This document shows, one piece after another, positions 132-32,000 of a stretch of DNA of 32,000 nucleotides. This DNA is from Ktedonobacterales bacterium (GTDB lineage Bacteria > Chloroflexota > Ktedonobacteria > Ktedonobacterales > JADMIN01). The translations under genes and the position numbers were made by a program. The stretch's first letter is position 1. Every line of letters starts with the position of its first letter. The notes beneath the pieces are model-generated. The model saw nothing but the letters and a program-made list of their open reading frames with translations. It did not search any database and had not been told where the DNA came from. Location: the NCBI GenBank assembly GCA_030167145.1, contig CP126532.1, positions 1,920,001 through 1,952,000 on the forward strand. Direction: 5' to 3'.

Positions 132-283
132 GTGGCGTCTTCTCCAGTGAGGGCCGCAGGATTGCGACCTGCTGGTGAAGAGCATACCGGACCGCAAGGC
201 ATGGCGTCAAGCGTGATGGTGCGCGTGCGCTTTAGCTCGCGGCGTGTGGCTACCTGGGCGTGTAACACAGCGAGAGAGCGCCT

Positions 284-1376: not shown

Positions 1377-1823
1377 ATGCCAGTACCCACGGACGAAACG
1401 CCTGCGCTGCGGCTGACCATCGAGCTGGTGCCCGCCACGTGCTGGGGCGCGAACGTTCGAGACGTGCTGCCGCGCGCCCGCTGGGACGCACTGCGGCGCG
1501 AGGTCTATGCTGCGTCGGGGCATCGCTGCGCTATCTGCGGCGCAGGCGGCAAGCTGCACTGCCATGAGGTGTGGGACTACGATGACGCAGCACACGTGCA
1601 GCGGTTGCGCGGCTTCCGCGCGCTCTGCGTGGAGTGTCATCACGTGAAGCACATCGGGCATGCGCGGTTGCTTGCCAGCCAGGGCAAGCTCGATTATGAG
1701 CGCATCGTCGCGCATTTTCTGCGCGTCAACGGCTGTGACCGCGCTACGTTCGCGCGCCACCGCGACGAGGCCTTCGCCCGCTTTGCGGAGCGTTCGCGCT
1801 ACGAGTGGCGCACGGAGTTCTGA
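1377..1823 (+). CDS. HNH / zinc-ribbon nuclease-like protein
   Basis: 148 aa with GAGGAG about 10 nt upstream. Ligand pairs C51xxC54, H61-C62-H63-E64 and C84xxC87-H88-H89xxH92. The N-terminal LVPATCWGANVR motif is typical of small stand-alone HNH-type proteins. Confidence 0.55.
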   Translation: MPVPTDETPALRLTIELVPATCWGANVRDVLPRARWDALRREVYAASGHRCAICGAGGKLHCHEVWDYDDAAHVQRLRGFRALCVECHHVKHIGHARLLASQGKLDYERIVAHFLRVNGCDRATFARHRDEAFARFAERSRYEWRTEF

Positions 1824-1826
1824 ATT

Positions 1827-2750: not shown

Positions 2751-2794
2751 CTCCGCTTACCTGCCGCACAAAATGGTGTCTCCTGATTATTCGT

Positions 2795-2990
2795 GACATG
2801 CTCCCCATCCCTAAAGGGAAGGGGCTTCTCGCTTCACCACGGCAGCCTACGCCACCGCTCCACGACGGCTCTGCCCAAGCCGGAGAATATTTCGGGCCGC
2901 ATTCTCGTCGCGGTCCAGCACCAGCCCACAGGCGGTACAGACATGGGTACGCACCGACAGGCTCTTCCGCACCCGTGTCCCGCAGCCGCT
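2795..2990 (-). ncRNA. predicted TnpB guide RNA (omegaRNA/reRNA) scaffold region, bounds approximate
   Basis: Placed only by established knowledge that TnpB guide RNAs derive from the tnpB 3' end plus the IS right end. The hairpin is present, but no transcript evidence is available. Confidence 0.3.
2803..2824. repeat. IS right-end subterminal hairpin CCCCATCCC-TAAA-GGGAAGGGG
   Basis: Imperfect palindrome with an A.A mismatch, 23 nt beyond the tnpB stop. It is related to the hairpin at 4461-4482. Confidence 0.6.
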
Positions 2991-3983
2991 ACAATCCTGG
3001 CTGGTATAGGCGGGTTCCACCGCAACCACTCGTTTACCGGCGCATGCTGCCTTGTATTCAAGCGTGGTACGAAACTGCGCCCAGCCAGCATCACTGATGC
3101 TTTTGGCCAGATGGTGGTTGCGTACCAGGTTGCGAACCCGCAGGTCTTCGAGATAGATCACATCGTACTGGCGCACCAACGCCAACGCGGTCTTGTGATG
3201 AAAGTCCTGGCGTTGCCGTCTGACTTTCTGATGCTTCTTCGCCAGCAGTTGCACCGCCTTCTTGCGGCGATGGCTGCCCTTCTTGCGCCGCGAGACCACG
3301 CGCTGCGCTTTCTTCAGTCGCTTTTCTTCACGGCGGTAATGGTGGGGGTTCTCCACGAACACCCCATCTGCCGTCACCAGGAAGGCATTCAGCCCGACAT
3401 CTATGCCCGTCTCCTGGCCAGTGCGCGGCAACGGTTCCACCGGCACGTCGGCGCACGAGATACAGGCATACCAGCCATCCGCCTCTTTGGAGATGGTAAC
3501 GGTCTTGGGTGTGCCCTGCAAGCCGCCGGGTAGCGGACGATGCAGCCGGATACGAATCCGCCCAATCTTCGACAGATTGAGCACGCTCCCGTCCAGCACT
3601 GCCCCATGGCCGTACTGCGGATAGGTGAAGGAGTGGTAGCGGTTCGCACCCTGGAAGCGGGGATATCCCGGTGTCTGCCCCTCTTGGATACGTTGGAAGA
3701 AGGCGGCAAACGTGCGCTCAATTCGCAAGAGGACATCCTGCAAGACCTGCGAATGGACTGCGGCGTATTCCGGGAGCGCCGCCTTCAGGTCGGGCAGTTC
3801 CGCTTTCTGTTGGTAGTACGTCGCGCTCTTGCTTTGTCCGCGTCCCCACCACGTCTTGCGCTGTTCCAACGCGGTATTGTAGAGCGTGCGACAGTGCCAC
3901 AAGACGGTTGCCAGCACCCGCGCTTGCGCTGGCGTGGGGTTCAGTTGGTACTTGTACGTCTTGCGGACTGCCGTTTCTGCCAC
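2847..3983 (-). CDS. tnpB: IS605 OrfB / TnpB RNA-guided endonuclease
   Basis: 378 aa with the typical N-terminus KTYKYQLNPTPAQ. RuvC residues are intact (GIDVG, YLEDL, DRDENAARNI). Zn finger CSGCG...CTACG. Confidence 0.95.
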   Translation of the reverse strand: MAETAVRKTYKYQLNPTPAQARVLATVLWHCRTLYNTALEQRKTWWGRGQSKSATYYQQKAELPDLKAALPEYAAVHSQVLQDVLLRIERTFAAFFQRIQEGQTPGYPRFQGANRYHSFTYPQYGHGAVLDGSVLNLSKIGRIRIRLHRPLPGGLQGTPKTVTISKEADGWYACISCADVPVEPLPRTGQETGIDVGLNAFLVTADGVFVENPHHYRREEKRLKKAQRVVSRRKKGSHRRKKAVQLLAKKHQKVRRQRQDFHHKTALALVRQYDVIYLEDLRVRNLVRNHHLAKSISDAGWAQFRTTLEYKAACAGKRVVAVEPAYTSQDCSGCGTRVRKSLSVRTHVCTACGLVLDRDENAARNILRLGQSRRGAVA

Positions 3984-3986
3984 GCG

Positions 3987-4382
3987 CTATTTGCCCTTCT
4001 GGTTTTCGACGTAGCGTTTCAAGGTTTCTAGCGTCACGCCGCCCACCGTTGCCACAAAGTAGCTATTCGTCCACAGGGACGGTAGACGGCGCTTCAACGC
4101 GGGATACTCCACACGCAGCGCGTGCGAACTGTAGCCCTTCAAGAGCTTCACCAGCCGGTGAATGCCGAACTGTGGGTCACACCCGACGAGCAGATGCACG
4201 TGATCGGGCATGACCTCCATCTCGATCAGGTCTTGCCCCCACCACTCTATCTGCTCGGCAAGAATAACCTTCAGCCGTTCATCTATTGGTGGCATCAACA
4301 CCTTGCGCCGGTATTTGGGGCAGAACACCACGTGATAGCGGCAGACGTAGACGACAGTGTTGTTGCTCCGCATAGCTTTCAT
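3987..4382 (-). CDS. tnpA: IS200/IS605 Y1 (HUH) transposase TnpA
   Basis: MKAMRSNNTVVYVCRYHVVFCPKYRRKVL..., HUH motif DHVHLLV, catalytic Tyr in TNSYFVATVGG. The internal ATG at 4382 is preferred over the ORF start at 4418 by family N-terminus. Confidence 0.93.
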   Translation of the reverse strand: MKAMRSNNTVVYVCRYHVVFCPKYRRKVLMPPIDERLKVILAEQIEWWGQDLIEMEVMPDHVHLLVGCDPQFGIHRLVKLLKGYSSHALRVEYPALKRRLPSLWTNSYFVATVGGVTLETLKRYVENQKGK

Positions 4383-4460
4383 GCAACCAGTATAGCATGT
4401 TCGATAATACGCTATCAACTACTGTCGTTATTCGTCGCCTGTGGACGACGCGGCTTTCAT

Positions 4461-4482
4461 CCCTAGCCCTAAAGGGACGGGG
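4461..4482. repeat. IS left-end subterminal hairpin CCCTAGCCC-TAAA-GGGACGGGG
   Basis: Same CCC-TAAA-GGG core and GGGGCTTC flank as the right-end hairpin. It lies about 80 nt upstream of tnpA. Confidence 0.6.
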
Positions 4483-4786
4483 CTTCAGCCGCCTTTTTCG
4501 CTAACCATTCCTACGCGGGAAGGCTTTCGCGGGTTGAAGGGTGACGGCGAAAGCAGCGCCCAGCGTTGTGGGCTAATGTACGCTGCTTATGGCATAAACC
4601 GGTCCAATATAGTGTCGTTGCCGCCATCGGGCAGACGGGGCGGGGCGACCTATCACGGGCGGCATCGTCGCCCACGCTCCCCACGAGTTCACGGCTCACG
4701 TCTTCGCCCGCACTTGCGAAGATGGCGGCGGTTGGCTAGACTGAGAACTACATGGCTGAGAAGCACATTGCCCAGGAGGCCGATCG

Positions 4787-5695
4787 TTGCCTTCTCGCGC
4801 ATATTCAGAAGACATGCCGGAGAACCACATGGCGCAACTCATGCCGCTGAGTGAAGCCATCGCGCAGTTGATTCACGATGGTGATACGGTGGCGATGGAA
4901 GGGTTTACGCACCTGATTCCCTTTGCGGCGGGTCATGAGGTGATCCGGCAGCAGAAACGGGATTTGACGCTGATTCGCATGACACCCGATGTGATCTACG
5001 ATCAACTGATTGGGGCGGGATGTGCGCGGCGGCTGGTGTTTTCGTGGGGCGGCAATCCGGGCGTTGGCTCGCTGCACCGGCTGCGCGACGCGGTGGAGCA
5101 CGAGTGGCCGCACGCGCTGGAAATCGAAGAGCACAGCCATGCGGGTTTGTCGAACGCCTATGTAGCGGGCGCTTCGAATATCCCCTTTGGTGTATTGCGC
5201 GGCTATCAGGGATCGGACCTGCCGCGCTACAATGACCATATTCGCTTCATCCAGTGCCCATTCACCGGCGAAGAATTGGCGGCGGTACGCGCGGTTCGGC
5301 CTGATGTGACGGTGATTCACGCGCAAAAAGCGGATCGCAAGGGGAATGTGCTGCTCTGGGGCATCCTGGGGGTGCAGAAAGAAGCGCTGCTGGCGGCGCG
5401 GCGCGCTATCGTCACGGTCGAAGAGATCGTGGACGACCTGGATGCGTGGCCGAATGCCTGTATTCTCCCCGCGTGGGTCGTGACGGCCGTCTGTGTGGTT
5501 CCCGGTGGCGCGTTTCCTTCGTATGCGCAGGGCTATTATCAGCGCGACAATCGGTTCTATCTGGCATGGGATGACATCGCGCGGGAGCGCGAACGCTTCG
5601 CGGCGTGGGTGCAGCGCCACATCCACGATACCGCCGACTTCGCTGAGTTCCGGCGAGTGTTGCGGGAATCGCAGGGCACGGAGGAGCAGCGATGA
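4787..5695 (+). CDS. CoA-transferase subunit A (glutaconate/3-oxoacid CoA-transferase family)
   Basis: 302 aa, TTG start with AGGAGG 7 nt upstream. The family-I CoA-transferase alpha pattern is present (DGDTVAMEGFTHLIPFAAGHEVIR...). ATGA overlap with subunit B. Confidence 0.85.
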   Translation: MPSRAYSEDMPENHMAQLMPLSEAIAQLIHDGDTVAMEGFTHLIPFAAGHEVIRQQKRDLTLIRMTPDVIYDQLIGAGCARRLVFSWGGNPGVGSLHRLRDAVEHEWPHALEIEEHSHAGLSNAYVAGASNIPFGVLRGYQGSDLPRYNDHIRFIQCPFTGEELAAVRAVRPDVTVIHAQKADRKGNVLLWGILGVQKEALLAARRAIVTVEEIVDDLDAWPNACILPAWVVTAVCVVPGGAFPSYAQGYYQRDNRFYLAWDDIARERERFAAWVQRHIHDTADFAEFRRVLRESQGTEEQR

Positions 5696-6480
5696 GCGAC
5701 CTGACCTACACCACCAGTGAGATGATGACCGTCGCCGCCGCGCGCATGCTCCCTGACCGCGCAGTGTGCTTCGTGGGGATCGGCTTGCCTTCGACGGCGG
5801 CGAACCTGGCGCGCCTGACGCATGCCCCGGAGCTGGTGCTGATCTACGAATCCGGCCCGATAGGCGCGAAACCGGTGGTGTTGCCGCTCTCGATTGGCGA
5901 TGGCGATCTGGCCGAAACGGCGGATACGGTGGTCTCTACCTCCGAAATCTTCCGCTACTGGCTGCAAGGCGAGCGCATAGACATCGGCTTTCTGAGCGCC
6001 GCGCAGATAGATCGCTTCGGCAATCTGAATACGACGGTGATCGGCGACTATCGCCACCCCCGCACACGGCTGCCTGGTGCGGGCGGCGCGCCGGAGATCG
6101 CTGGCTCAGCGCGCGAGGTGTTCATCCTGCTCAAGCAGTCGCGACGGGCCTTCGTCGAAAAGCTGGATTTCGTCACCTCCGTGGGCTTTGGCAACGGCGG
6201 CGAGGCGCGGGCGCGGCTGGGCCTGAGCGGGCGTGGCCCCGTGGCGGTCATCACCGACCTGTGCATCATGGAGCCAGAGACCACGACGAACGAACTGATC
6301 GTGATGCGGCTGCATCAGGGCGTCACACGGGAGCAGGTGCAGGCGGCCACCGGCTGGCCAGTGCGGTTCGCGACAACGGTGGGGGCAACGGACCCGCCGT
6401 CCGAGCACGAACTGGCCGCACTGCGTGACTTGCAGCGGCGCACGGCGCTGGCGCACGGCACCCAATCAGAGCGCCAGTGA
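5692..6480 (+). CDS. CoA-transferase subunit B
   Basis: 262 aa. The VGIGLPS...LIYESGPIG motif contains the conserved ESG glutamate of beta subunits. Translationally coupled to subunit A. Confidence 0.85.
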   Translation: MSDLTYTTSEMMTVAAARMLPDRAVCFVGIGLPSTAANLARLTHAPELVLIYESGPIGAKPVVLPLSIGDGDLAETADTVVSTSEIFRYWLQGERIDIGFLSAAQIDRFGNLNTTVIGDYRHPRTRLPGAGGAPEIAGSAREVFILLKQSRRAFVEKLDFVTSVGFGNGGEARARLGLSGRGPVAVITDLCIMEPETTTNELIVMRLHQGVTREQVQAATGWPVRFATTVGATDPPSEHELAALRDLQRRTALAHGTQSERQ

Positions 6481-7335: not shown

Positions 7336-9388
7336 TGCGCCGCTCCACTGGTAACATCACGGATATGCGCGTGCCACCGGTTTCGCGGTTCCGCGCCGCC
7401 ACACGCCCGCCATGCCGCTCGACAATAGACTTGACGATCCACAGCCCCAGGCCAACACCGCCCTGCTCTGGCTCTTCGCCCTCCGCGCGCACGAACCGTT
7501 CGAACAGCCCGGACGGCGCGTGCATGGGAAGCCCTGGCCCGGCATCCTCAACCCAGAGCGCAACCTCCGTCTCGCCTACCGCCCCGCCAATGGTGATCGT
7601 CGTGCCAGCGGGCGCGAATTTGTTGGCATTCGCCAGCAGGTTGACGAACACCTGCGTGAGCCGCGCCGCATCGCCGGAGACCGGCGGGAGCGGATACGGT
7701 AGCTCGACGGCGACCTCCTGCCCGCGCAACTCCAGCAAGGGACGTGTCAGATCTACCGCCGCCTCTACCACATCTTCCAGCGCGACCGCCTGGCGGCGCA
7801 GCGAGTCTTTTCCCGCTTCGATACGCACGCTTTCCAGTAGATTATCTATCAATTGCGTCAACCGGAGCGAGCCGCGCTGGAGCGCATGCGCCAGTTGGCC
7901 GATCTGCTCCATACTCAGGTCGGGTAGCTGGTCCAGCAGCAATTCGATGGAGGCCAGTTGCGCCGCAAGCGGCGTCTTGAACTCATGAGAGATGTTGGCC
8001 AGCACCGTGTCGCGCAGACGGCGGGTCGCCTCCACCTCGGTCTCGTCGCGCAGCACCTGCACTTGCTGCGCCTCAACCGGCGCGGCGCTGGTGATGACGA
8101 CGGTGCGACGCGAGCCATCCGGCGCGCAGAGATGCTCGGTCGCGCTGGCTGCGCCCCGAAAGCGCGCCTGCACAATCGGGCACTGCTCTTCACAGGGACG
8201 AACGCCGTTACGACGTTGCGGGTTCAGCACATCGCCGCAGAAGCGCCCCAACGCCGCATCGGGCGCGATGCCCAGTAGTGCCGCCATTTGTGGATTGAGG
8301 TAGCGCATGCGCCGCTCGCGGTCTACCGTGAAGACACCCTCGACGACACCGGTAAGAATCGCCTCGGATTCTGCCTGCTGGCGGCGCAGGTCGCCGGTGA
8401 GCGTCAGCAGCCGCCCGCGCATCTCTTCGAGCGAGGCTGCGAGCGTGCCAATCTCAGCGCCAGCTTCCGGGCGGATGGGTGTGGTCAGATCGCCCTCGCC
8501 AATGCGCGCGGCGGCCTTGGTCAGCATAAAGAGTGGCGCACCCATGCGCCTGCCGATGATGAAGCTGATCGCAGCAAGCGCCCCCGATACACCCATCGCC
8601 AGCAGCAACAGCGTCTGGACGAGCTGGCGTAGCGAATCCGTAGTGCTGGTAGACGGCAGCAACGTTTCCATCACACCGATGACGTTGCCAGAGAAGTCGC
8701 GCACCGGCTGAATGGCGATGTAATCCGCCGGAGCATCGAGGCGCGCGGTGGCTGCCATGCCTGTGGCGAGTACACGAGCGCGCAGGGCCGCGCGCGGGCC
8801 GCTGGCAGACGCGAGCGCGGCGCGGCGGTCGAGTATCGCGACGGGCAGCGCAATCTGCGCGCTGAGACGCTGCGCGAAGGCATCGTTCAAGACCTCTGCC
8901 GTGAGGACCGTCGTATCCGCAAGGGTGGGAATCGCGGCCCATCCGCTCAGCAGCAGCGGGCCATCTGGCGGCGATTGGAGGGCGGGCGCATCGCTGGCAG
9001 GGTGCGTGGACTGTAGCGTCGCCCACGGCAGCGCAGCGCCGCTGGCAACGAACACACGCCCATCTACGAGCACCGCGCAGCCGTCGAGGTGGCTAGACTG
9101 GCGATATTGATCCAGATAGGCGACCAGTCCAACGTTATCGGCAGTTTCGATGAGATGCTTGAGAGTTGGACGCTCGGCAAGCACCTGGGCAGCGGTCAAC
9201 GTATCATCGCCAGAGCGTTCGAGCGCGTGCTGCGCGCCGACGCCCGCCTGTGCGACGCGCGCCAGCGATTGCTCGTCCGCAAGCTGCTGCAGGAGATGCA
9301 CGGCGACGAGCGCGACCCCCGCGACGGCAAAGAGCAGGAGCGCAACATTGATGGTGACGAGCAGCGTGCTGAGCCGGAAGCGGCGCAT
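7313..9388 (-). CDS. sensor histidine kinase (2 TM, periplasmic domain, HAMP, Cys-rich PAS, HisKA, HATPase)
   Basis: H-box ISHEFKTPL; N/G boxes NLLANANKF and DAGPGL...GGVGLGL. Start chosen at MRRFRLSTLL (9388); an alternative TTG at 9478 lies 5 nt after the cysW stop. Overlaps the regulator gene by 23 nt. Confidence 0.88.
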   Translation of the reverse strand: MRRFRLSTLLVTINVALLLFAVAGVALVAVHLLQQLADEQSLARVAQAGVGAQHALERSGDDTLTAAQVLAERPTLKHLIETADNVGLVAYLDQYRQSSHLDGCAVLVDGRVFVASGAALPWATLQSTHPASDAPALQSPPDGPLLLSGWAAIPTLADTTVLTAEVLNDAFAQRLSAQIALPVAILDRRAALASASGPRAALRARVLATGMAATARLDAPADYIAIQPVRDFSGNVIGVMETLLPSTSTTDSLRQLVQTLLLLAMGVSGALAAISFIIGRRMGAPLFMLTKAAARIGEGDLTTPIRPEAGAEIGTLAASLEEMRGRLLTLTGDLRRQQAESEAILTGVVEGVFTVDRERRMRYLNPQMAALLGIAPDAALGRFCGDVLNPQRRNGVRPCEEQCPIVQARFRGAASATEHLCAPDGSRRTVVITSAAPVEAQQVQVLRDETEVEATRRLRDTVLANISHEFKTPLAAQLASIELLLDQLPDLSMEQIGQLAHALQRGSLRLTQLIDNLLESVRIEAGKDSLRRQAVALEDVVEAAVDLTRPLLELRGQEVAVELPYPLPPVSGDAARLTQVFVNLLANANKFAPAGTTITIGGAVGETEVALWVEDAGPGLPMHAPSGLFERFVRAEGEEPEQGGVGLGLWIVKSIVERHGGRVAARNRETGGTRISVMLPVERRNEDSGGG

Positions 9389-9483
9389 GGGCAAGGGTCC
9401 GTGTTGAGTACCGCGGGCATGGGCGCGGTGCGCGCAAAGCTGGCCCATCGTAGCACACCAACGCGCGAGCGCGGCCAAACGGG

Positions 9484-10323
9484 CTAGACTCGCGCCCGTT
9501 TGCGTAGGCGTTCGATGCCAAACACCAGCGTGAGCGAGAGCAGCCCCAGCACCAGTGCGACGCTGAATGCGGCGCTATCGTTGCGGTTATCCAGCGCGCG
9601 GAAGATGTAGAGCGGAGCCGTTTCGGTGGACCCCTGGATATCGCCGCCGACCACGAGCACCGCGCCGAACTCGCCGAGCGCGCGGGCGAAGGTCAGCGCC
9701 ACGCCGTAGAAGATGCCCCAGCGCAGCGCGGGGAAGGTCACGCGCCAGAACGTGCGCCACGCGCTGGCGCCGAGCGTGGCCGCCGCGTGCTCTGGCTCCT
9801 GGTCGAGTGATTGCAGCAATGGTGCGACTTCGCGAATCATCAGCGGCAGGGTGACGAAGAGTGTCGCCAGGACCATGCCGGGCACAGCGAAGGCGACCTG
9901 GATGTTGAGCGCATCGGTCAGCGGGGCAAACAGCCCTTGCGCGCCGAAGAGTAGCAGAATGATGTAGCCCACGACGACCGGCGAGATCGCGAACGGCAGG
10001 TCAATCAGCGCGTTCAGCCAGCGGCGTCCCCGGAAGCGATGCCGCACCAGCACCCAGGCGACCACTGTGCCGAATATGGTATGGACGGCAACGGTGATGA
10101 GGCTGATCTGGAGCGTCAGCGAAAAGGCGGCTTGCGCGTCGGGGTCGCGCAGCGTAGCGAGCAGCGCGCCCACCCCATGCGAGAACGCGCCCACGATCAA
10201 TGCGCCCACTGGCGCGAGAATCAAGATCGCCACATAGGCGACGACGATGCCGATGAGCAGCCAGCGCATGCGCTGCGCGACGGGCGGCTGTGTGGTGATT
10301 GTCGCTGAAGACAGCAGCCTCAT
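9484..10323 (-). CDS. cysW: sulfate ABC transporter permease CysW
   Basis: MRLLSSATITT... with six hydrophobic segments and the EAA loop region EPEHAAATLGASAWRTFWRVTFP. Its ATG overlaps the cysT stop (ATGA at 10320-10323). The upstream 148 codons of the track ORF overlap cysT and are discarded. Confidence 0.9.
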   Translation of the reverse strand: MRLLSSATITTQPPVAQRMRWLLIGIVVAYVAILILAPVGALIVGAFSHGVGALLATLRDPDAQAAFSLTLQISLITVAVHTIFGTVVAWVLVRHRFRGRRWLNALIDLPFAISPVVVGYIILLLFGAQGLFAPLTDALNIQVAFAVPGMVLATLFVTLPLMIREVAPLLQSLDQEPEHAAATLGASAWRTFWRVTFPALRWGIFYGVALTFARALGEFGAVLVVGGDIQGSTETAPLYIFRALDNRNDSAAFSVALVLGLLSLTLVFGIERLRKRARV

Positions 10324-24593: not shown

Positions 24594-26225
24594 CTAATGG
24601 CGGAAGTGGCGCTGGCCGGTCGTCACCATGGCAATGCCGTAGCGATTCGCCATGCGGATGGATTCTTCGTCGCGGATCGAGCCGCCCGGCTGGATGATCG
24701 CGGTGATGCCCGCCTTCGCCGCTTCTTCCACGCCGTCGGGGAAGGGGAAGAACGCATCGGAGGCCAGCACACTGCCGCGCGCGCGGTCGCTGGCGCGGTC
24801 CACGGCGATGCGCACGCTGTAGACGCGGTTCATCTGCCCCGCGCCGACGCCCACCACCGCCAGCCGCTTGGCCAGCACAATCGCGTTGGATTTCACGTGC
24901 TGCACGGCTTTCCAGGCGAAGCGCAGGTCGGTGATCTCCTCGAAGGTCGGCTTGCGCTCCGTCACTGGCGTCAGCGCGACCTCTTGCTCGGCGATCAGGT
25001 CGGGTGTCTGGATAAGCAGTCCGCCACTCACACGACGCAGATCCAACCGGTGCGGGTCTTGGGCATCGGCAAGCAGCACGCTCGGCCCAATCGGCGCGCC
25101 GGTCGCCAGCAGCCGCAGATTCTTCTTTAGCGTCAGGATCTCCAGCGCCTCCTGTGAATAGCTGGGCGCGATGATGCACTCATAGAAGATCTGCGAGAGT
25201 TCGGTCGCCGTCTCTGCGTCCACCTCGCGGTTGAAGCCGAGAATGCCACCATACGCCGAGACGGGATCGCCCGCGTGCGCCTTGTGGTACGCCTCCACCA
25301 GCGCATCGGCGCAGGCGATGCCGCAGGGGTTGGTGTGCTTGATGACCACTGCCGCGGGCGGTCCGAAGCTCGCCACCGTCGTCAGCGCCGCATCCAGGTC
25401 CAGCAGATTATTGAAGCTCAACTCTTTGCCGTGCAGCAGCCGCGCCCCGGCGACGGTGGGCATGCTCTCGCGCTCCGGCGAATGCGGCTTGCCGTTGTGC
25501 TCGCCACCTTCGTCGTCCTGCTCGCGCAACCCCTGGCCGATGCCGCCCCAGCTATAGAGCGCCGCCGCCTGATGCGGATTCTCGCCATAGCGCAGCTTTT
25601 GCAGCCGCCGCAGCCCAATGGTCATCTCTTCGGGGAAGAGCGCGCCCGGCGTGTCGCGGCGCAGATATTCGGCGATCATCGTGTCGTAGAGCGCGGTATG
25701 CTGGAAGGCCAGCGCCGCCAGCCGCTTGCGCGTCTCCGGGCTGGTCGCGCCCGCCATCTTCAGTTCATCAAGCACGGCGTCGTAGTCTTCGGGGTGGGTA
25801 ATGACCGTGACCGACGGGAAGTTCTTCGCCGCCGCGCGCAGCAGCGTCACCCCGCCGATGTCTATCTCTTCCAGCGCCGTTTCCTGTGTCGCCCCGGGTT
25901 GGGCTACGGTGCGCGCGAAGGGATAGAGGTTGCAGACGACGAGATCAATCGGCGTGATGTTGTGCGCGGCCAGTTCGGCCATGTGCGCCGCGTCGTCGCG
26001 CCGGGCGAGGATGCCGCCATGCACCGCTGGATGCAGTGTCTTGACACGCCCGCCCAGAATCTCGGGGAAGCCGGTCACGTCGGAGACCGCGCGCACCGGG
26101 ATGCCCGCCGCCGCCAGCAGCGCCGCTGTGCCGCCGGTCGAGATAAGCTCCACTTGCAGCGCGCTCAGGCCGCGTGCCAGCCCTTCGATACCGGTCTTAT
26201 CGGCAACACTCAGCACCGCGCGCAT
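24594..26225 (-). CDS. purH: bifunctional AICAR transformylase / IMP cyclohydrolase
   Basis: [20 protein letters not shown]...[16 protein letters not shown] is the classic PurH N-terminus. GAGGAG before the ATG at 26225. Confidence 0.95.
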
Positions 26226-26362
26226 CGTGTGTCTCCTCTCGCCGCGCCCATAGCCAGGCGGCGTCACATGCCCTTTGCTCCAAAGGAAAGAGGCTCGGGG
26301 TGGTTCATTCGATACAGGGCGCGCTCTAAGCAGCGTAGTATCCGCGCAGCCCCGACACACTA

Positions 26363-26938
26363 TTATAGCCGCTCCATGACATCTTTGCAGACCGTTCGCA
26401 GGGTGGGGAAGACGCCCTGGCCTGTCACCGCTGACGCTTCGTAGGTCTGGACGCGCCGCCGGTTGAGGTAGCGGTCGAGCGTTGCGACGGGAATGGCGTT
26501 GGGCACGTCGCGCTTATTCCACTGGATGACGAACGGAAAGGCACCGAGGTCCTTGCCCAGTTGCCGCATGTTGGTTTCCAGTTCGATCAAGCTCTGGAAG
26601 TTCTCTTCGAGCTTCTCCGGCGTCGAATCCACGACGAAGACGACGCCATCCGCACCGTTGAGCACGGCGACGCGCGTCCGCTCGTAGAGCACCTGCCCTG
26701 GCACGGTATACAGGTGGAAGCGCACGCGGAAGTCATGCACCAGCCCCAGATCGAGCGGAAGGAAGTCGAAGAAGAGGGTACGCTCGCTCTCGGTGGCGAT
26801 GGTGAGCAGGTCGCCGCGTGCGGGCTGGGGCGCGTGGCTATAGATGTATTGCAGGTTGGTGGTTTTGCCGCAGAAGCCGGTGCCGTAGTAGACGATCTTG
26901 CAGTGGATCTCGCGGCTGGCGACGTTGATCAGCGCCAT
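26363..26938 (-). CDS. mglA: MglA-type Ras-like small GTPase
   Basis: REIHCKIVYYGTGFCGKTTNLQYIY...RTLFFDFLPL...FHLYTVPGQV...NKRD is near-diagnostic for MglA. Confidence 0.9.
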   Translation of the reverse strand: MALINVASREIHCKIVYYGTGFCGKTTNLQYIYSHAPQPARGDLLTIATESERTLFFDFLPLDLGLVHDFRVRFHLYTVPGQVLYERTRVAVLNGADGVVFVVDSTPEKLEENFQSLIELETNMRQLGKDLGAFPFVIQWNKRDVPNAIPVATLDRYLNRRRVQTYEASAVTGQGVFPTLRTVCKDVMERL

Positions 26939-26958
26939 AGTCTTCGCAACTCCGCCAG

Positions 26959-27453
26959 CTACTCCTGGAACAACTGGTCAATGGCGTTCTGCGCCGAGTT
27001 GCGGAACTGCACGCTGACGATCTGGTCTTTGGCCTGCGCGCCGCCCGCCCGCACGCGCTCCAGGATGCGATCCAGTTCTTCGACGGCCTTGCGCGCCAGC
27101 ACCTTCACCAGCCCCACATGCGTCTGCTTCTCGAAGACGACCACCAGCAGCCACTGCTCGCCGACCAGACTGGTATAGATGCTCTCGTAGATGCCCTGTT
27201 GCAGGATGCTATGAAAGTCTTTCTCGCCCAGGATCTGCGCGACCTGGCGCGAGGACGAGAACGCGCCGGCGAGCAGCGCTCCCAGCGCCAGCAGATCGCG
27301 CTCACCGACTTCGCCTTGCGTGGCGATGAGCTGGCCGCTCTTATCCAGCAGCAACACATGGCTCGCCCCGGTTTCGAGCGTGAGGCGTCCGAGCACGCGG
27401 GCAATGTGTACCAGTTCCGCCTCTGAGACCACCAGATTCGTCAGTTGCTCCAT
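26959..27453 (-). CDS. mglB: MglB-type Roadblock/LC7 domain protein (MglA GAP)
   Basis: 164 aa, directly upstream of mglA. Roadblock-like pattern HVLLLDKSGQLIATQG...LGALLAGAF. Confidence 0.8.
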   Translation of the reverse strand: MEQLTNLVVSEAELVHIARVLGRLTLETGASHVLLLDKSGQLIATQGEVGERDLLALGALLAGAFSSSRQVAQILGEKDFHSILQQGIYESIYTSLVGEQWLLVVVFEKQTHVGLVKVLARKAVEELDRILERVRAGGAQAKDQIVSVQFRNSAQNAIDQLFQE

Positions 27454-27530
27454 ATCCCGGTCTCCCTCGCCGTGCGTGGCAGCGCGCCCGCGCCTTCGCT
27501 GGCATGCCCGCGTACCCCAAAGCCGCCGTC

Positions 27531-27536
27531 ATTATA
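27531..27536 (-). promoter_or_regulatory. perfect TATAAT -10 box upstream of mglB
   Basis: Minus strand TATAAT, 78 nt upstream of the mglB ATG and 9 nt downstream of repeat R1. No good -35 element. Confidence 0.35.
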
Positions 27537-27545
27537 CGGCCACCG

Positions 27546-27583
27546 CCCCCACGCGCGCTACACCGATAGGCGCATCTGGCGAG
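27546..27583. repeat. 38-bp direct repeat R1 (copy downstream of hicB)
   Basis: CCCCCACGCGCGCTACACCGATAGGCGCATCTGGCGAG; 36/38 identical to 28224-28261. Confidence 0.9.
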
Positions 27584-27664
27584 ATAAGATGCACCACATC
27601 TCTGTTTCTATGCTTGCTATGTGGCCAGTGCTTACGTCGGTGCCAATCCGGTGCATGGCGCGGG

Positions 27665-27880
27665 TTAGGCGCTGGCGGGCACATCATGGTCTTGCGGGGT
27701 GGGGATTGCCTGCCCACGTTCACGCGCGGTCTCGATCCACATTGCGATGACTTCCTGAGCCATGGCGAACGCGGCTTCTGGCGTTTCGCCATCGGCCATC
27801 GCGCCGGGGAGGTCTGGGATTTCTACGATCCAGGCTTGATCCGGCTCGCTCCAATACAGGTGCATGCGGTACTTATACAT
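27665..27880 (-). CDS. hicB: HicB-family antitoxin (short, UPF0150-type)
   Basis: 71 aa. YWSEPDQAWIVEIPDLPGAMADGETPEAAFAMAQEVIAMWIE is the typical HicB N-domain. Starts 19 nt after hicA. Confidence 0.8.
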   Translation of the reverse strand: MYKYRMHLYWSEPDQAWIVEIPDLPGAMADGETPEAAFAMAQEVIAMWIETARERGQAIPTPQDHDVPASA

Positions 27881-27899
27881 GGCTTTCTCTTTCTAAGCA

Positions 27900-28151
27900 T
27901 TACTCGTGGCCATACCGTCGCAGTACGTCACGAACCTGCTTGACCTGGTACGGCTTCGCTTTCCCGCTCTTGCCGGGCTGGATATTGATGTTTTCCGGGC
28001 GGTCCGGGTGAACAAAGATATGGTGCGAGCCGTGCTGCCGCCATGCTTGATACCCCACATGGGGCAGCATAGCACATAGGTCTTGAAAGTCTACGTTCGT
28101 GTCCGCCTGGCCGCCCATGACCCGCCGCAAGGTCTTTTCCCATTGCGCCAC
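27900..28151 (-). CDS. hicA: HicA-family mRNA interferase toxin
   Basis: WEKTLRRVM...FQDLCAMLPHVGY...GSHHIFVHP...AKPYQVKQVRDVL. GTG start at 28151 (GAGG 5 nt upstream) is preferred, because the track ORF start at 28232 lies inside repeat R2. Confidence 0.75.
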   Translation of the reverse strand: MAQWEKTLRRVMGGQADTNVDFQDLCAMLPHVGYQAWRQHGSHHIFVHPDRPENINIQPGKSGKAKPYQVKQVRDVLRRYGHE

Positions 28152-28223
28152 CTTTGCCTCACTTCCCGTATACCTCGCATGTTCCGCCGGGCACGTAATC
28201 AAAGCCAACCTATCAGGTGACTG

Positions 28224-28261
28224 CCCCCACACGCGCTACACCGGTAGGCGCATCTGGCGAG
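28224..28261. repeat. 38-bp direct repeat R2 (copy upstream of hicA)
   Basis: CCCCCACACGCGCTACACCGGTAGGCGCATCTGGCGAG; 36/38 identical to R1, offset 678 bp. Confidence 0.9.
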
Positions 28262-28294
28262 GATGAGCGGTGAAGATCATCAAATCCTTCCCGC

Positions 28295-29110
28295 TCATAT
28301 GGGAAGCAACCCTTCTGTCAGAAATGCCAATTCCTTATCTGGACGCCTGCGCTTACATTCGAGTCCTGGGAAGCCACCCCAGCGAAAGCAGATACGCAGG
28401 TAGTTCACGAACGTGGTGTGATGCCATTCATAATCCAAGGTACTGTCACTTGCTGCATTCGGCAAGGCTACAGTGTAATCGCCTCCCCCTGGATAACCGA
28501 GCTTGAAATGCTCGTCGGGAGCTAACGCCAATGTCGGTGTCACTAACTCCTCTAGATATGCGCGGGCATTATCAAATGGATACACCCAGAGAGGATCAAG
28601 ATCATGCCGACATGGACGCCCGCCCATTAGCTCGGTATATTCTCGCATAGTGAACTGCTTACCAGATGCCTTGACTTGTGGCAGGTGAGCGAATCCTTCG
28701 GGGTCTGAAGGATCATCCACTGGATACATCCCTACCAAATTCACGGATCCAACGTGCTCATACCAGGCCCGCAGGGAAAGTGGCAGAATTCCAACCTTTT
28801 CCTCAAGGTCGTCGAGCTGTAAAATGATGTCTGGGTCGGGTTCAGTAAAAGGCGGGGGAGGGTCGAGTTCTCTTTCCAAAAATGATTGTTCACTCTGTGA
28901 ACACCACGAATATCCAAAACGATAGCCTACTTCAAGCAACCGCTGAATTATCAGCACGATGTTGTGCTTTGCGCGGCGCATCGTCTCGTCGGCGACGGCA
29001 CAAGCGTCGGTGTATACTGGTTCTTCTCGTACCCGCTCGCCGAGCGCGAGTAAATCGTCCCATACACGCTCATGTTCACCGGCGAGATAACGGCGCAAAT
29101 AATCAGTCAT
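28295..29110 (-). CDS. hypothetical protein, weak SUKH/SMI1-KNR4-like central motif
   Basis: 271 aa from the ATG at 29110 (GGGGGTG upstream). LDDLEEKVGILPLSLRAWYEHVGSVNLVG resembles the SMI1/KNR4 core. The 49 upstream codons of the track ORF overlap the uvrC remnant out of frame and are discarded. Confidence 0.55.
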   Translation of the reverse strand: MTDYLRRYLAGEHERVWDDLLALGERVREEPVYTDACAVADETMRRAKHNIVLIIQRLLEVGYRFGYSWCSQSEQSFLERELDPPPPFTEPDPDIILQLDDLEEKVGILPLSLRAWYEHVGSVNLVGMYPVDDPSDPEGFAHLPQVKASGKQFTMREYTELMGGRPCRHDLDPLWVYPFDNARAYLEELVTPTLALAPDEHFKLGYPGGGDYTVALPNAASDSTLDYEWHHTTFVNYLRICFRWGGFPGLECKRRRPDKELAFLTEGLLPI

Positions 29111-29172
29111 GATCACCCCCGCGTATGCGCTGGCACCGGTGGGACATGTGCCACACGGCGCGCCAGCCGCCG

Positions 29173-29249
29173 CTACTCCGTCTTGATGAGGCCCGCGCCG
29201 ATGCGCTCTTTGATGCGCTCCGCCAACTCTGCGCTGATGCCCCGCACCT
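29173..29249 (-). pseudogene. displaced duplicate of the uvrC 3' end (fragment)
   Basis: Translates ...VRGISAELAERIKERIGAGLIKTE* versus the intact uvrC ...VEGISADLAERIKEHIGAGLIKTE*. 71/78 nt identical to 30190-30267 by hand alignment. The frame is closed upstream by a stop at 29308-29310. Confidence 0.8.
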
Positions 29250-29358
29250 GATTGCACCTCAGCAGGCTGACCAACCGGTCTCCAGTATGCTCGCCTTCAA
29301 CACATCTTCAAATACTCAGCGGCGCGAGTTTTCGTGCGTGTTGGAGGGTGGTGAGCCA

Positions 29359-29607
29359 CTATCGCTGAGGAGTGGTCTCCACTGGCGTGATGGCGCGCGC
29401 ATGCGTCACTTCGTTCTTCGTCGCTGGGCGAATCTGGCCCTCCTGGACGGTCACGACATCATAGGTCGAACCATCTCCCCGGAAGATTTCCACCTCATAG
29501 GCTTTGCCTGACGGGTGAATATCCGCGACGGTACCCACGTCGCCAGCCAGCAGACCATACTGTGGCAGATCCACCGTCAAGACCACTTGCTCAAATTCCT
29601 GAATCAT
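29359..29607 (-). CDS. DUF4926-like small protein
   Basis: MIQEFEQVVLTVDLPQYGLLAGDVGTVADIHPSGKAYEVEIFRGDGSTYDVVTVQEGQIRP matches my memory of DUF4926. GAGGGG lies 5 nt before the ATG at 29607; the track ORF opens at 29643. Confidence 0.7.
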   Translation of the reverse strand: MIQEFEQVVLTVDLPQYGLLAGDVGTVADIHPSGKAYEVEIFRGDGSTYDVVTVQEGQIRPATKNEVTHARAITPVETTPQR

Positions 29608-29639
29608 GGAAACCCCTCTTTCGGCCCGTTCAATTTGCC

Positions 29640-29960
29640 TCAATCGAGCGCATAGGCAGAGATGAGCCGTGGATAGCTTCTTCCGCCGTCAATCATCCAG
29701 ACCGAGCGCACCTGTGGATTCCGGCCATCCGGCGATGGCAACTCCCCCTCAACGACATACTTTACCCCATCATCGAGCGGGATTTCTTTCACATACGGAT
29801 GCGTGACTACATGGTGCAACAAGGCATCACGCAACACCTGCCACTGCGCCTGCGTAAACCCATATCCGTGAAAGAATTTGGCTTTGCCGGGATTCTTCAA
29901 CAGGTAGTCGGTGATTTTTGCATCCCCAATCACCGCTTGCGCCGCATTCGGCACCAACAT
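29640..29960 (-). CDS. DUF6883-like small protein
   Basis: 106 aa with GGAGGA 6 nt upstream. The pattern PNAAQAVI...KITDYLL...KAKFF...GF...W..L...L....G.KY...LPSPDGRNPQVRSVW...PRLISAY resembles the DUF6883 family. Confidence 0.7.
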   Translation of the reverse strand: MLVPNAAQAVIGDAKITDYLLKNPGKAKFFHGYGFTQAQWQVLRDALLHHVVTHPYVKEIPLDDGVKYVVEGELPSPDGRNPQVRSVWMIDGGRSYPRLISAYALD

Positions 29961-30062
29961 CGCTCATCCTCCGGTGTTTCCCGTGAACTGGTGTTCCCAT
30001 CCTCTTCCCATCCACTCGCGGCGACGGGTCACACTGGTGGCCGATACGAGTCACGAACTCAG

Positions 30063-30076
30063 ACACCGATAGGCGC
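30063..30076. repeat. third, partial copy of the R1/R2 core (ACACCGATAGGCGC)
   Basis: 14-nt exact match to the centre of R1, with loose similarity for about 9 more nt. It lies in the leader of the DUF6883 gene. Confidence 0.6.
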
Positions 30077-30190
30077 GCCTCGCTGCTTACAATATCCACC
30101 CTCTCAATTATAGCCATACTTTTAATGGCATCTGTGGCAGGCGGGCGGGTGACAATACTGTGCCACTCCTGTGTCTGGCCAACTCTCTGG

Positions 30191-32000
30191 CTACTCCGTC
30201 TTGATGAGGCCCGCGCCGATGTGCTCTTTGATGCGCTCGGCCAGGTCGGCGCTGATGCCCTCCACCTCTGCTAGCTCTGCCGTGCTCGCCGCCGCGATGC
30301 CCCGCGCGGAGCCGAAGCGGCGAATCAGCGCCTTCTTGCGCTTCGGGCCGATGCCGGGGATTTCGTCCAGCAGCGAGCGGAACGTGCGCGTGCTGCGGAC
30401 CTGCCGGTGATAGGTGATGGCGAAGCGGTGCGCCTCATCGCGTACCCGCTGCAAGAGATACAGCGCCTGCGACCCACGCGCCATCACCAGCGGCTCCACC
30501 TGCTCCACCAGATAGATCTCCTCGTGGGTGCTGATGCTGCCGTGGTCCTCCTTGGCGATGCCGATCACCGGCACACCTACCGCCAGATCGCTCAGCACCG
30601 CCAGCGCCGCGTTGAGTTGCGGACGCCCGCCATCCACCATCACCAGATTCGGCAGCAGCGCCCACGGATCGCCCACCGCGTCCGCGCTCGCCCCCTCCTC
30701 GTTCGGCATCTCAGAGTCGTCTGGCGGCTGCAACCCATCGCCGCTATCTACGCTTTCCTCTACACCATCACCCTCCGGCTCCACTGCTTCCAGCGCAACG
30801 GATTCCTGGGCATCGCCAGCGTCGCCGGTCGTCAGCAGCCGCTTGAAGCGCCGCCGCAGCACTTCTTGCAGGCTCGCCACATCGTTCTGCCCTTCCACCG
30901 CCTTGATCTTGAAGCGCCGGTAATCGCTGGTCTTGGGCTTGCCGCCCTCGAAGACCACCATCGAGCCGACCGCGCTGGTGCCCTGGATGTTCGAGATGTC
31001 GTAGCATTCGATGCGCTGCGGCGGCGACGGCAGGTTCAGCGTCTCGCCCAGCTCTTCCAGCGCCATCGCCGTCTTCTGCGAATCCGAAAGCCACTTGATG
31101 CGCTGCTGCTCCAGCACCTCGCTGGCGTTCTGCGCCACCATCTCCACCAACCGCAGCTTGTCGCCCCGCTGCGGTAAGGTCAGCGTCACCACCGCTCCGC
31201 GCTTCTGCCGCAGCCACTGGCGCAGCGCCTCGCCGTTCTCCGGCTCGTGCTGCACGACCACCTCAGCCGGAATGTGCGGCGCGGAATCGTAGAACTGCTG
31301 CAAAAACGACGCCATAATCTCGCCCGGCTCGGTATCGCGCGTGCCCTGCAAGAGGAAGTATTCGCGCCCAGCCAGCTTGCCGCCCCGGAAGAAGAACACT
31401 TGCGCGCAGGTCTCGTCATCCGCGCCCGCCAGCGCCACCACGTCCTGATCGCCCGGCCCAGTGGTGTTGATGATCTTCTGCTTCTCCAGCACCTGCTCTA
31501 CGGCGCGCACGCGGTCGCGCAGCGCCGCCGCTCGCTCGAACTCCAGGTTCTCCGCCGCCTCGGCCATCTGCGCCTTCAGATCGGCCAGCGCCTCATCATG
31601 CTTGCCTTCTAGGAAGAGCATCACCTGGCGGATCACCGCGTCGTACTGCTCGCGGGTGGCGTTGCCCACGCACGGCGCGTTGCAGCGGTGGATGTAGTAC
31701 TGTGTGCAGGGGCGCGGCAGATACTTCTGCTTCCACTCCGCTGGTGGGTGCTCCTCCTGCCCGCGCGGCGGCGCCCAGGGCGAGCCATCATAGCGGCAGG
31801 TGCGATAGGGAAACAGTTTGTTCATCAGGTCCAGCGTCGCGTCCACGGCGCCTGAATTGGTGTAGGGTCCGAAGTAGCGGTTGCCGTCGCGCCGGAAGCT
31901 GCGTACGCGGTAGACACGCGGGAAATCTTCGGTGAGCGCGACTTTGATGTAGGGGTAGTTTTTGTCATCGCGCAGCCGCACATTGTATTTGGGCTGATAC
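30191..32000 (-). CDS. uvrC: excinuclease ABC subunit C, C-terminal about 600 aa (5' end beyond window)
   Basis: The UvrC blocks FERAAALRDR, IECYDISN, PNLVMVDGG and HRFAITYHR and a terminal (HhH)2 domain are present. The reading frame stays open through 32000. Confidence 0.95.
   Translation of the reverse strand, partial: YQPKYNVRLRDDKNYPYIKVALTEDFPRVYRVRSFRRDGNRYFGPYTNSGAVDATLDLMNKLFPYRTCRYDGSPWAPPRGQEEHPPAEWKQKYLPRPCTQYYIHRCNAPCVGNATREQYDAVIRQVMLFLEGKHDEALADLKAQMAEAAENLEFERAAALRDRVRAVEQVLEKQKIINTTGPGDQDVVALAGADDETCAQVFFFRGGKLAGREYFLLQGTRDTEPGEIMASFLQQFYDSAPHIPAEVVVQHEPENGEALRQWLRQKRGAVVTLTLPQRGDKLRLVEMVAQNASEVLEQQRIKWLSDSQKTAMALEELGETLNLPSPPQRIECYDISNIQGTSAVGSMVVFEGGKPKTSDYRRFKIKAVEGQNDVASLQEVLRRRFKRLLTTGDAGDAQESVALEAVEPEGDGVEESVDSGDGLQPPDDSEMPNEEGASADAVGDPWALLPNLVMVDGGRPQLNAALAVLSDLAVGVPVIGIAKEDHGSISTHEEIYLVEQVEPLVMARGSQALYLLQRVRDEAHRFAITYHRQVRSTRTFRSLLDEIPGIGPKRKKALIRRFGSARGIAAASTAELAEVEGISADLAERIKEHIGAGLIKTE

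Follow-up and report, generated by a model that had tools for sequence, protein, structure and literature searches.

A duplicated uvrC 3' end brackets a toxin-immunity gene pair in a Ktedonobacterales genome

The stretch of DNA analysed here (the window) comprises 32,000 nt of the genome of a Ktedonobacterales bacterium and ends within uvrC, which lies on the minus strand at 30191..32000, with its stop codon at 30191-30193 and its 5' end cut by the window edge. Matches to the Pfam families UvrC_RNaseH_dom, UvrC_RNaseH, UVR and HHH_5 were found, and in the source contig the product is full-length (691 aa, P0001) with a complete UvrC Pfam architecture. A repeat search of the 32-kb window revealed a 78-nt direct repeat at 29172-29249 and 30190-30267 (spacing 1018 nt, 71/78 identical, or 91%), which has only two copies in the window; just one other good direct repeat of at least 30 nt was present there. 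The proximal copy, U1 (30190..30267, minus strand, GC 65%), is the working end of uvrC, and since it includes the stop codon and all domains are kept, the gene has been left intact. The distal copy, U2 (29172..29249, minus strand), has the same orientation, giving an intact uvrC followed by an orphan fragment of its own 3' end. This duplication, with its spacing of 1,018 bp and 71 of 78 matching positions, was described in the original prediction and is confirmed by the repeat search, but it covers the last 25 codons, the stop and 1 nt rather than the 22 codons claimed.

An in-frame stop located 21 codons upstream makes U2 a dead fragment, as had been proposed, and the translation of U2 ends ...RGISAELAERIKERIGAGLIKTE*. 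A 33-aa ORF was called by JGI on this relic. All seven differences between U1 and U2 fall within the first 46 nt and none within the last 32 nt, a clustering that rests on 7 substitutions (p = 0.025, random placement). Five of the differences are internal, three being synonymous and two conservative (D>E, H>R), so that both copies look like ends that evolved under selection. Both also carry the lineage-specific tail IGAGLIKTE*, and so they are not demonstrably different alleles. The repeat boundary is exactly the stop codon plus 1 nt. Past the relic is a GC-rich spacer (29111..29171, minus strand, 74% GC) that has GTGGCACA...TGCCA in common with the stretch after U1 and is probably the old uvrC 3' untranslated region. 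The weaker similarity claimed to continue past the stop is marginal only (local alignment p ~0.03 against shuffles). Terminator hairpins after both copies were considered and rejected, as folding there is no more stable than that of shuffled sequence. The 29249/29250 junction shows no clean microhomology. A separate public assembly of run SRR22113990 contains two contigs that match the window at 100% identity and break off exactly within the perfectly identical 32-nt repeat core. The short-read contig L097 is bounded by this core. The seven differences between the copies and the match of these separate contigs to the window exclude an assembly artefact.

The segment between the two uvrC ends is 940 bp long, with a GC content of 53-57% versus 65% for uvrC and both repeat copies. 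It carries only the genes for DUF6883 and DUF4926, as expected from the original prediction, and all of its features are on the minus strand. The leader (30048..30189) is unique sequence of 53.5% GC, without DNA homology to other DUF6883 loci, and contains a 14-nt motif (GCGCCTATCGGTGT, 30063-30076) and a TATAAT (30107-30112). The latter, a perfect TATAAT belonging to the gene pair according to the original prediction, is present, but was not called by a consensus promoter scan, as a -35 match is absent. The core that is conserved at other loci (29355..30047) consists of about 87 nt of 5' region followed by DUF6883 (29640-29960, Pfam E 1e-24) and DUF4926 (29359-29607, Pfam E 5e-18), families assigned as a BECR-Tox3 RNase toxin and its immunity partner (bioRxiv 10.64898/2026.08.28.747851). 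The trailer (29250..29354) is again unique sequence, of 55% GC, and its end at 29250 forms the left junction with the relic. A motif in the trailer (GGTGCAATSAGG) was also seen at L084, but this was the only other locus with it and the match is probably due to chance.

The stretch from 27600 to 30190 is low in GC throughout and rich in addiction-type genes. Beyond the spacer lies p272 (28295..29110, minus strand, 52% GC), an accessory gene of 271 aa that has no Pfam match but at least 496 homologues in varied contexts. The possibility that it is a hidden recombinase was rejected, as it has no Pfam or PADLOC match, and its AF2 model is confident (pLDDT 94) with only faint Knr4/SUKH-like matches. 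It was not found directly after uvrC in relatives. Next is a toxin-antitoxin pair (27665..28151, minus strand) with hicA at 27900-28151 and hicB at 27665-27880 (Pfam HicA_toxin and HicB_lk_antitox), which is bracketed by a repeat of its own of about 100 nt, with the upstream copy, D2a, at 28174..28286 and the downstream copy, D2b, at 27499..27600 (both minus strand). A TATAAT (27532-27537) and then mglB (26959-27453) follow. Identity between the repeat copies in this islet is 86-91%. The gene order mglB-mglA-purH is conserved in relatives while the upstream side of mglB is variable, and D2-like DNA is not present upstream of mglB in those relatives.

Mobility genes were sought in JGI gene calls with Pfam and by our own scans over about 37 kb, made up of window positions 1-32000 and 5.4 kb beyond uvrC. 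No site-specific recombinase of the tyrosine or serine type was detected, in agreement with the original prediction, and the sole mobile-element genes are IS200/IS605 TnpA/TnpB (2847-4373), which are 26 kb away and unrelated. Mobilisation in trans by this element, in the manner of PATEs, was rejected, the IS hairpin motif occurring only at the IS ends (2809-2828 and 4467-4486). An integron attC/CALIN arrangement was likewise rejected, as core sites (GTTRRRY/RYYYAAC) are absent from all four inter-cassette spacers, and there was neither an Rfam match nor an integrase. No integrase pseudogene or phage gene fragment was seen.

The DUF6883/DUF4926 module also occurs at five other loci (L083-L087), all in unrelated contexts, with a DNA identity of 82-84% (blastn) and with homology confined to the operon (window 30047..29355). 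At five or more other loci the pair is flanked by neither uvrC nor uvrC-like sequence nor repeats, which shows that the cassette is not dedicated to targeting uvrC. A search of viral and metagenome contigs for further copies of the repeat, using a degenerate DNA pattern for IGAGLIKTE*, gave 0 matches.

The search for an empty site yielded no species-level relative of the source genome, either among 80 GTDB uvrC loci or among 5.8 billion proteins, in which the nearest UvrC is 81% identical. Exact MglA/MglB matches were restricted to the source genome and one Logan run, and synteny with six related genomes is broken on the downstream side of uvrC. A clade of Dehalococcoidia was found to have the same uvrC architecture with true presence/absence polymorphism. 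The gene located behind a relic in L064 comes directly after uvrC in L075. L073 is without the second cassette of L064, and in L077 two uvrC ends are separated by an additional insert of 698 nt. The relics of this clade vary in length (39, 52 and 70 nt), and in the arrays the relic has the tail allele REGL* and the working end REYL*, indicating that the new uvrC end arrived with the cassette. In L064, L067, L075 and L077, the working and orphan ends clearly belong to different alleles, and each is collinear with the downstream gene that accompanies it in other genomes. Variable relic lengths and differing tail alleles are more readily explained by the import of orthologous gene ends than by a fixed att site. 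The inserts encode no recombinase, and single-gene units recur in the arrays, also without remnants. In this clade uvrC is followed, 4 kb downstream, by an XerD-like gene.

Similar scars occur at other genes. In L078, an hicAB pair lies between copies of 98 nt from the 3' end of another gene, and in L080 a 3-kb insert lies between copies of 184 nt from the end of a third gene; together with the hicAB repeats in the window, these indicate that the process is not specific for uvrC. In independent events in other genomes (L064, L077 and L078) the repeat likewise extends just 1 nt beyond the stop codon. Orthologous gene ends are homologous only as far as the stop codon, which would place the repeat boundary there; a staggered cut would not be expected to fall at this point.

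These features support an insertion scar in which the intact end is at uvrC and the displaced old end is distal, as originally proposed. With modest confidence, we favor 3'-end displacement, or insertion with long target duplication, by host recombination and repair without a dedicated recombinase. For the source of the DNA, the sequence of steps and the enzymes involved, we infer the following. A foreign fragment of about 0.94 kb (leader with its -10, DUF6883, DUF4926 and trailer) would have entered attached to its own uvrC 3' end, most likely from the uvrC locus of an unsampled relative. The first junction would have formed by homologous recombination in the last uvrC codons, in a zone that may be marked by the 32-nt identical block at the stop, and the second (29249/29250) by joining of the fragment end to a point 78 nt ahead of the stop of the resident uvrC, either through a Campbell-type single crossover of the recircularised fragment or through a one-sided homologous anchor and an illegitimate join. 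This would have left uvrC intact with a new end (U1) and the old end (U2) stranded 1 kb downstream as a dead relic, after which the toxin-immunity pair may have stabilised itself by addiction. Recombination over just 32-78 nt of homology is inefficient, and this counts against displacement, as do the tail common to U1 and U2, the lack of clean microhomology at 29249/29250 and the apparent excess of relics at uvrC.

A true long target-site duplication, in which the uvrC end suffered a staggered or resected double-strand break that was filled in on either side of captured DNA, and the distal copy then decayed neutrally, is unlikely but is given some weight. This class of event has been so described for restriction-modification systems, with a proposed role for double-strand breaks (PMC2853133), and it would agree with the lineage-specific tail and GC content that are the same in both copies, and with the two different repeats that bracket two modules in one islet. 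However, uniform neutral drift is not expected to produce differences that are clustered (0/32 nt versus 7/46 nt) and biased towards synonymous changes, nor does the scheme sit well with repeat boundaries at the stop codon in several independent events, with relic and working ends of different allele in the Dehalococcoidia arrays, or with published repeats that are 94-100% identical compared with 86-91% here.

Site-specific integration in trans, by which a recombinase-less CIME or integron-type cassette with an att that mimics the uvrC 3' end would have been inserted by an integrase encoded elsewhere, is distinctly unlikely. Gene-3'-end direct repeats with an identical 32-nt core do give the textbook attL/attR picture, and the tandem relic arrays at uvrC in Dehalococcoidia, the apparent enrichment of such scars at uvrC (see below) and the XerD-like gene near uvrC in that clade all point the same way. 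Against this are the lack of a tyrosine or serine recombinase within about 37 kb, the five other cassette loci that are without uvrC-like sequence and show homology only as far as the operon borders, the absence of the U pattern from viral and metagenome contigs, repeat lengths that differ between events (39-78 nt), the equivalent scars at other genes, and inter-cassette spacers devoid of integron core sites and Rfam matches. The minimal uvrC-targeting cassette mobilised in trans that was offered in the original prediction is not supported, in view of the same contexts, the missing U pattern and the varying lengths and alleles of the Dehalococcoidia relics. Its other suggestion, capture by an unknown mechanism, comes near the truth, except that the pattern has already been described (PMC2853133, PMC5361080).

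Relics were present at 3 of the 80 uvrC loci, plus the window, versus two such events among about 1,700 other genes in 1.85 Mb, and this apparent over-representation could hint at a site preference. It is the sole positive hint for a further reading, which we consider improbable, that Chloroflexota use the uvrC 3' end as a dedicated site of capture. A trans-acting recombinase or nuclease, possibly of the host Xer type, would then recognise the conserved last codons and insert promoter-bearing toxin-immunity and other accessory cassettes, to give integron-like arrays in which uvrC-end relics take the part of 'attC'. It is highly improbable that the segment is the remnant of a larger island or prophage that was placed into uvrC by its own integrase and then lost nearly everything, integrase included, for although the tract at 27600-30190 is entirely low in GC and full of addiction-type genes, and the downstream side of uvrC is a synteny break, the relic lies in the middle of this tract and not at its end (requiring at least two islands and two clean decays), no trace of an integrase or phage gene was seen, and the Dehalococcoidia arrays repeat single-gene units that are likewise free of remnants.

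Islands with an integrase, and cis-mobilisable elements, insert at the 3' ends of genes such as those for tRNA and tmRNA, guaA and others. As at uvrC, the insert lies between direct repeats of the target-gene 3' end, the gene is restored by the proximal copy, and elements can accumulate in tandem; at uvrC, in contrast, there is no integrase in or near the insert, the cassette is not tied to this att-like sequence elsewhere, and repeat lengths are inconstant. Displacement of C-terminal ends is also known from rhs, CDI and T6SS effector loci (Jackson et al. 2009; Kirchberger et al. 2017, PMC5361080), where orphaned 3' ends have been explained by homology-facilitated illegitimate recombination (PMC5361080). 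There too, a conserved body gains a new 3' end and downstream gene while the old end and its gene are pushed back, and repeated events produce arrays of orphan ends, exactly as in the Dehalococcoidia uvrC arrays with their different tail alleles. In Rhs/T6SS loci, however, the displaced end is a variable toxin domain and function changes, whereas the uvrC end is a conserved housekeeping (HhH)2 tail, function is unchanged, and the gene is merely a homology anchor.

Insertion with long target duplication (Nobusato et al. 2000; Furuta, Abe and Kobayashi 2010, PMC2853133) was described for restriction-modification units, which lack mobility genes and whose target duplications are long and variable and often include a stop or start codon (PMC2853133). 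The uvrC insert is similar in being a small addiction-type unit without transposase or integrase, bracketed by a direct repeat of more than 30 bp that is not a dispersed family, spans the stop of an intact neighbor and varies in length between events. An empty site, another feature of that class, is seen in the analogous Dehalococcoidia events when L075 is compared with L064. The differences are that the cargo here is a BECR-Tox3/DUF4926 toxin-immunity pair, the repeats are less alike than the published ones and lie almost wholly within coding sequence, and the host belongs to the Ktedonobacterales. Experiments in E. coli have shown that recircularised DNA can integrate by a single crossover to give recombinase-free inserts flanked by gene-end duplications of variable length (109-950 bp; Amarir-Bouhram et al. 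2011, PMC3240628), the same outcome as here, but those laboratory cases involved plasmid DNA and longer duplications than the 78 nt found in this natural genome. The recombinase-free insertion at uvrC is a scar of a known kind and not a new type of mobile element.

The uvrC insertion provides a clean, checkable example, outside the Proteobacteria, of toxin-immunity modules entering chromosomes without mobility genes, with the conserved end of a housekeeping gene serving as a homology handle and a stranded gene end remaining behind. Such relics are markers of past insertions, and also a source of spurious small ORFs. The gain, loss and allele replacement observed in Dehalococcoidia bear on how insertions with long target duplication come about, and suggest that at least some long 'target duplications' are two alleles of one gene end rather than duplications made on the spot.

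The uvrC gene, which encodes a complete UvrC domain set, lies on the minus strand with its stop codon at 30191-30193. A repeat search and MAFFT alignment both recovered a 78-nt direct repeat between the working 3' end of this gene (30190-30267; U1) and a second copy (29172-29249; U2) at a spacing of 1,018 nt, with 71 of 78 positions identical, as in the original prediction. Only one other good direct repeat of at least 30 nt is found in the 32-kb window, and it lies in the same islet. The translation of U2 ends in RGISAELAERIKERIGAGLIKTE followed by a stop, and an in-frame stop 21 codons upstream makes it a dead fragment, also as proposed. The JGI gene calls place a 33-aa protein-coding gene over this relic (29173-29274), almost certainly a spurious ORF. 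The seven differences between the copies are confined to the first 46 nt, leaving the last 32 nt identical (p = 0.025 if random). Two are in the first three codons, at the border, while the five internal ones are synonymous (three) or conservative (two), and such clustered, synonymous-biased differences are to be expected if both copies once served as real uvrC ends. An identity of 32 nt is about the minimum required for RecA-type recombination (MEPS literature). The duplication is not an assembly artefact, since the copies differ at seven positions and two Logan contigs (run SRR22113990; 30219..29174 and 29201..24667) match the window at 100% identity, each breaking off within the 32-nt core. 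The right border is the stop codon plus 1 nt, here and in the other events described below, as expected from a comparison of orthologous gene ends, in which homology stops with the conserved gene. The similarity claimed past the stop codon is marginal (p about 0.03), and hairpins there fold no better than shuffled sequence.

The source genome is a Ktedonobacterales MAG with a 5.07-Mb contig (JGI 3300045419). Among 5.8 billion proteins, the closest UvrC shows 81% identity, and exact matches to its MglA and MglB occur in the genome itself and in a Logan assembly, evidently of the same organism, and nowhere else. The tail IGAGLIKTE-stop is common to U1 and U2, and UvrC of relatives ends ...KEHIG(N/S)GRAE..., indicating that this tail is lineage-specific; a degenerate DNA pattern for it gave no match in metagenome or viral contig collections. 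In six related genomes (UvrC 73–80% identical) uvrC is followed after 11–49 nt by the start of a convergent gene of about 530 aa, so uvrC in the window sits at a synteny break. The mglB-mglA-purH order is kept in relatives, while the side upstream of it is not.

GC content falls from 65–67% in uvrC to 49–59% across 27600-30190, and is 62% in mglBA. This low-GC tract holds three accessory units, all oriented as uvrC (minus strand): a DUF6883 gene (29640-29960) and a DUF4926 gene (29359-29607), which lie between the repeat copies as predicted; a gene for a 271-aa protein (28295-29110); and hicA/hicB (27665-28151), followed by mglB-mglA-purH. The TATAAT noted at 30107-30112 is present, without a -35 partner, and the site was not called by a consensus promoter scan. 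DUF6883 proteins have been assigned to the BECR-Tox3 RNase toxins, and DUF4926 has been described as the immunity partner conserved downstream of them (recent preprint, bioRxiv 10.64898/2026.08.28.747851). The 271-aa protein has no Pfam or PADLOC match and belongs to a large, uncharacterised family of at least 496 members, itself without a Pfam entry. Its predicted structure is confident (pLDDT 94, pTM 0.92) and had no significant neighbour in the PDB; the top non-significant matches were of the SUKH type (Knr4/FBXO3), and on these faint matches it may be an immunity-like protein. The lack of Pfam and PADLOC matches, together with a confident model without a significant PDB neighbour, rules it out as a recombinase. 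Toxin-antitoxin modules are abundant around uvrC, and addiction-type genes also lie on its other, upstream side, where positions 1-5200 of the 5.4 kb past the window encode a HigB toxin paired with an HTH_3 protein, and a Fic protein whose partner has 74 aa.

Mobility genes were sought across the whole window and the 5.4 kb beyond uvrC, using JGI gene calls with Pfam and our own scans. The predicted absence of a recombinase held, the sole mobility genes being an IS200/IS605 pair (2847-4373) on the minus strand: TnpA (Y1; 3987-4373) and TnpB (2847-3983), in an element spanning 2800-4490. Its matching terminal hairpins (GAAGCCCCnTCCCTTTAGGG; 4467-4486 and 2809-2828) do not occur near the cassettes, and the element is considered unrelated to them. 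Integron core sites were found in none of the four spacers, and an Rfam search was also without match.

Homologues of DUF6883 are numerous (dozens at 76–89% identity). In five loci that were fetched, the DUF6883/DUF4926 pair occurs in unrelated contexts, with neither uvrC-like sequence nor flanking long repeats. DNA homology to the window runs from 30047 to 29355, covering both genes and about 87 nt of 5' region, and ceases 4 nt beyond the DUF4926 stop. Between this core and U1 lies a 142-nt leader, and between it and U2 a 105-nt trailer; both are unique and, like the core, low in GC. No homologue of the 271-aa protein adjoins uvrC. The observation behind the original prediction, a real and recombinase-less scar, is confirmed, and its interpretation is partly supported; a uvrC-targeting element, as in its suggestion of a minimal cassette mobilised in trans, is not, given the promiscuous contexts of the cassette.

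Eighty uvrC loci were scanned for copies of their own 3' ends, followed by pairwise blastn and a ten-sequence alignment, and one Dehalococcoidia clade showed the same architecture. Reading from uvrC to a conserved DUF72 gene, L064 has two lipoprotein genes, the first trailed by a 39-nt uvrC-end relic and the second by one of 70 nt. In L075 the second lipoprotein gene comes directly after uvrC, so that the site of the first cassette is empty; in L073 the second cassette is missing and another gene follows uvrC; and in L077 the working uvrC end and a 52-nt relic are separated by an additional insert of 698 nt encoding a 222-aa membrane protein. No insert encodes a recombinase. Each relic has a stop codon and is collinear with the sequence following it in a relative, left borders vary, and tail alleles differ (REGL-stop in relics, REYL-stop or REHL-stop in working ends). 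Taken together, these alignments indicate that a new uvrC end arrives with a new cassette and displaces the old end. The interval between uvrC and DUF72 is a hypervariable slot (11587-13760 in L064; also seen in L067, L073, L075 and L077), containing single-gene cassettes (two lipoproteins, AlbA_2-like, membrane and PHP-like proteins) and uvrC-end relics of 39–70 nt. A XerD-like gene lies 4 kb downstream of uvrC in conserved synteny.

When 1.85 Mb of Chloroflexota loci were systematically compared with themselves, only 13 dispersed direct repeats of 35–400 nt emerged, two of which, outside the uvrC cases, are of the same kind. In Dehalococcoidia MAG CBDBMD010000003, a 98-nt repeat (87% identical; span 8860-9648) surrounds hicAB (9057-9619, opposite strand); it corresponds to the 3' end of a CoA-transferase-like gene located immediately upstream of uvrC, and the relic still reads GLLGFSEAEYQRPEADSTIGTAYTEDAT up to the stop. 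In Dehalococcoidia MAG CBDCYU010000003, a 184-nt repeat (89% identical; 6052-6231 and 9221-9404) surrounds a 3-kb ABC-transporter insert, the repeated sequence being the 3' end of the gene for a 113-aa membrane protein that lies immediately after a XerD-like gene. With relic scars at 3 of 80 uvrC loci against two events among about 1,700 other genes, uvrC looks over-represented, although the counts are low and sampling was centred on uvrC. The second repeat of the window (about 100 nt; 27499-27600 and 28174-28286) brackets hicA/hicB and has a 42-nt core at 93% identity. Its architecture matches that of the uvrC-end repeat, yet it is located in a promoter region, the downstream copy being followed by a TATAAT (27532-27537) and mglB, and no similar DNA is found upstream of mglB in relatives. 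Both copies contain a 14-nt motif, GCGCCTAYCGGTGT (28238-28251 and 27560-27573), that recurs in the DUF6883 leader (30063-30076), 31 nt past the TATAAT there (p about 0.01). The motif is not kept at other DUF6883 loci, and its presence in the leader could reflect either an earlier junction that left it as a relic or an operator common to both places. Three Ktedonobacteraceae loci (L014, L016 and L057) have short palindromic repeats of 18–28 nt (139 nt in L016) recurring several times, in both orientations, shortly downstream of uvrC, which look like a REP/MITE-type family and not gene-end relics.

The scar in the window most probably arose by 3'-end displacement through host recombination. Incoming DNA carrying a related uvrC end and a low-GC toxin-immunity segment would have undergone homologous recombination within the last uvrC codons, and its other end would have become linked to the resident gene 78 nt short of the stop codon, either when a recircularised fragment underwent a single crossover or by a one-sided anchor and an illegitimate join. 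In E. coli, events that looked like homology-facilitated illegitimate recombination were mostly single crossovers that left gene-end duplications of 109–950 bp (PMC3240628), and orphaned 3'-end arrays of Rhs and T6SS genes have been explained likewise (PMC5361080). The locus also fits, descriptively, the 'insertion with long target duplication' of units that lack mobility genes and have variable repeats of >30 bp, often spanning a stop or start codon (PMC2853133), but the published cargo is restriction-modification whereas here it is toxin-immunity.

A true target duplication followed by drift is unlikely, as a staggered cut with uniform neutral decay predicts neither the clustering of differences nor a border at the stop codon, and relic and working alleles differ in the Dehalococcoidia arrays. 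An integrase acting in trans could have used the 32-nt identical block as its site-specific core, but there is no recombinase nearby, the cassette contexts are promiscuous, repeat lengths vary and like scars occur at non-uvrC genes, making this explanation quite improbable. A dedicated capture system acting at uvrC ends is very doubtful, and a decayed large island, which would require two clean decays and has left no remnants, is the hardest of all to credit.

The scar follows a pattern that is already described; in this Ktedonobacterales genome its cargo is a toxin-immunity pair. Most useful among the new observations are the Dehalococcoidia uvrC arrays, with their demonstrable gain and loss of cassettes and allele replacement, together with the hint that some 'long target duplications' may be two alleles of one gene end.
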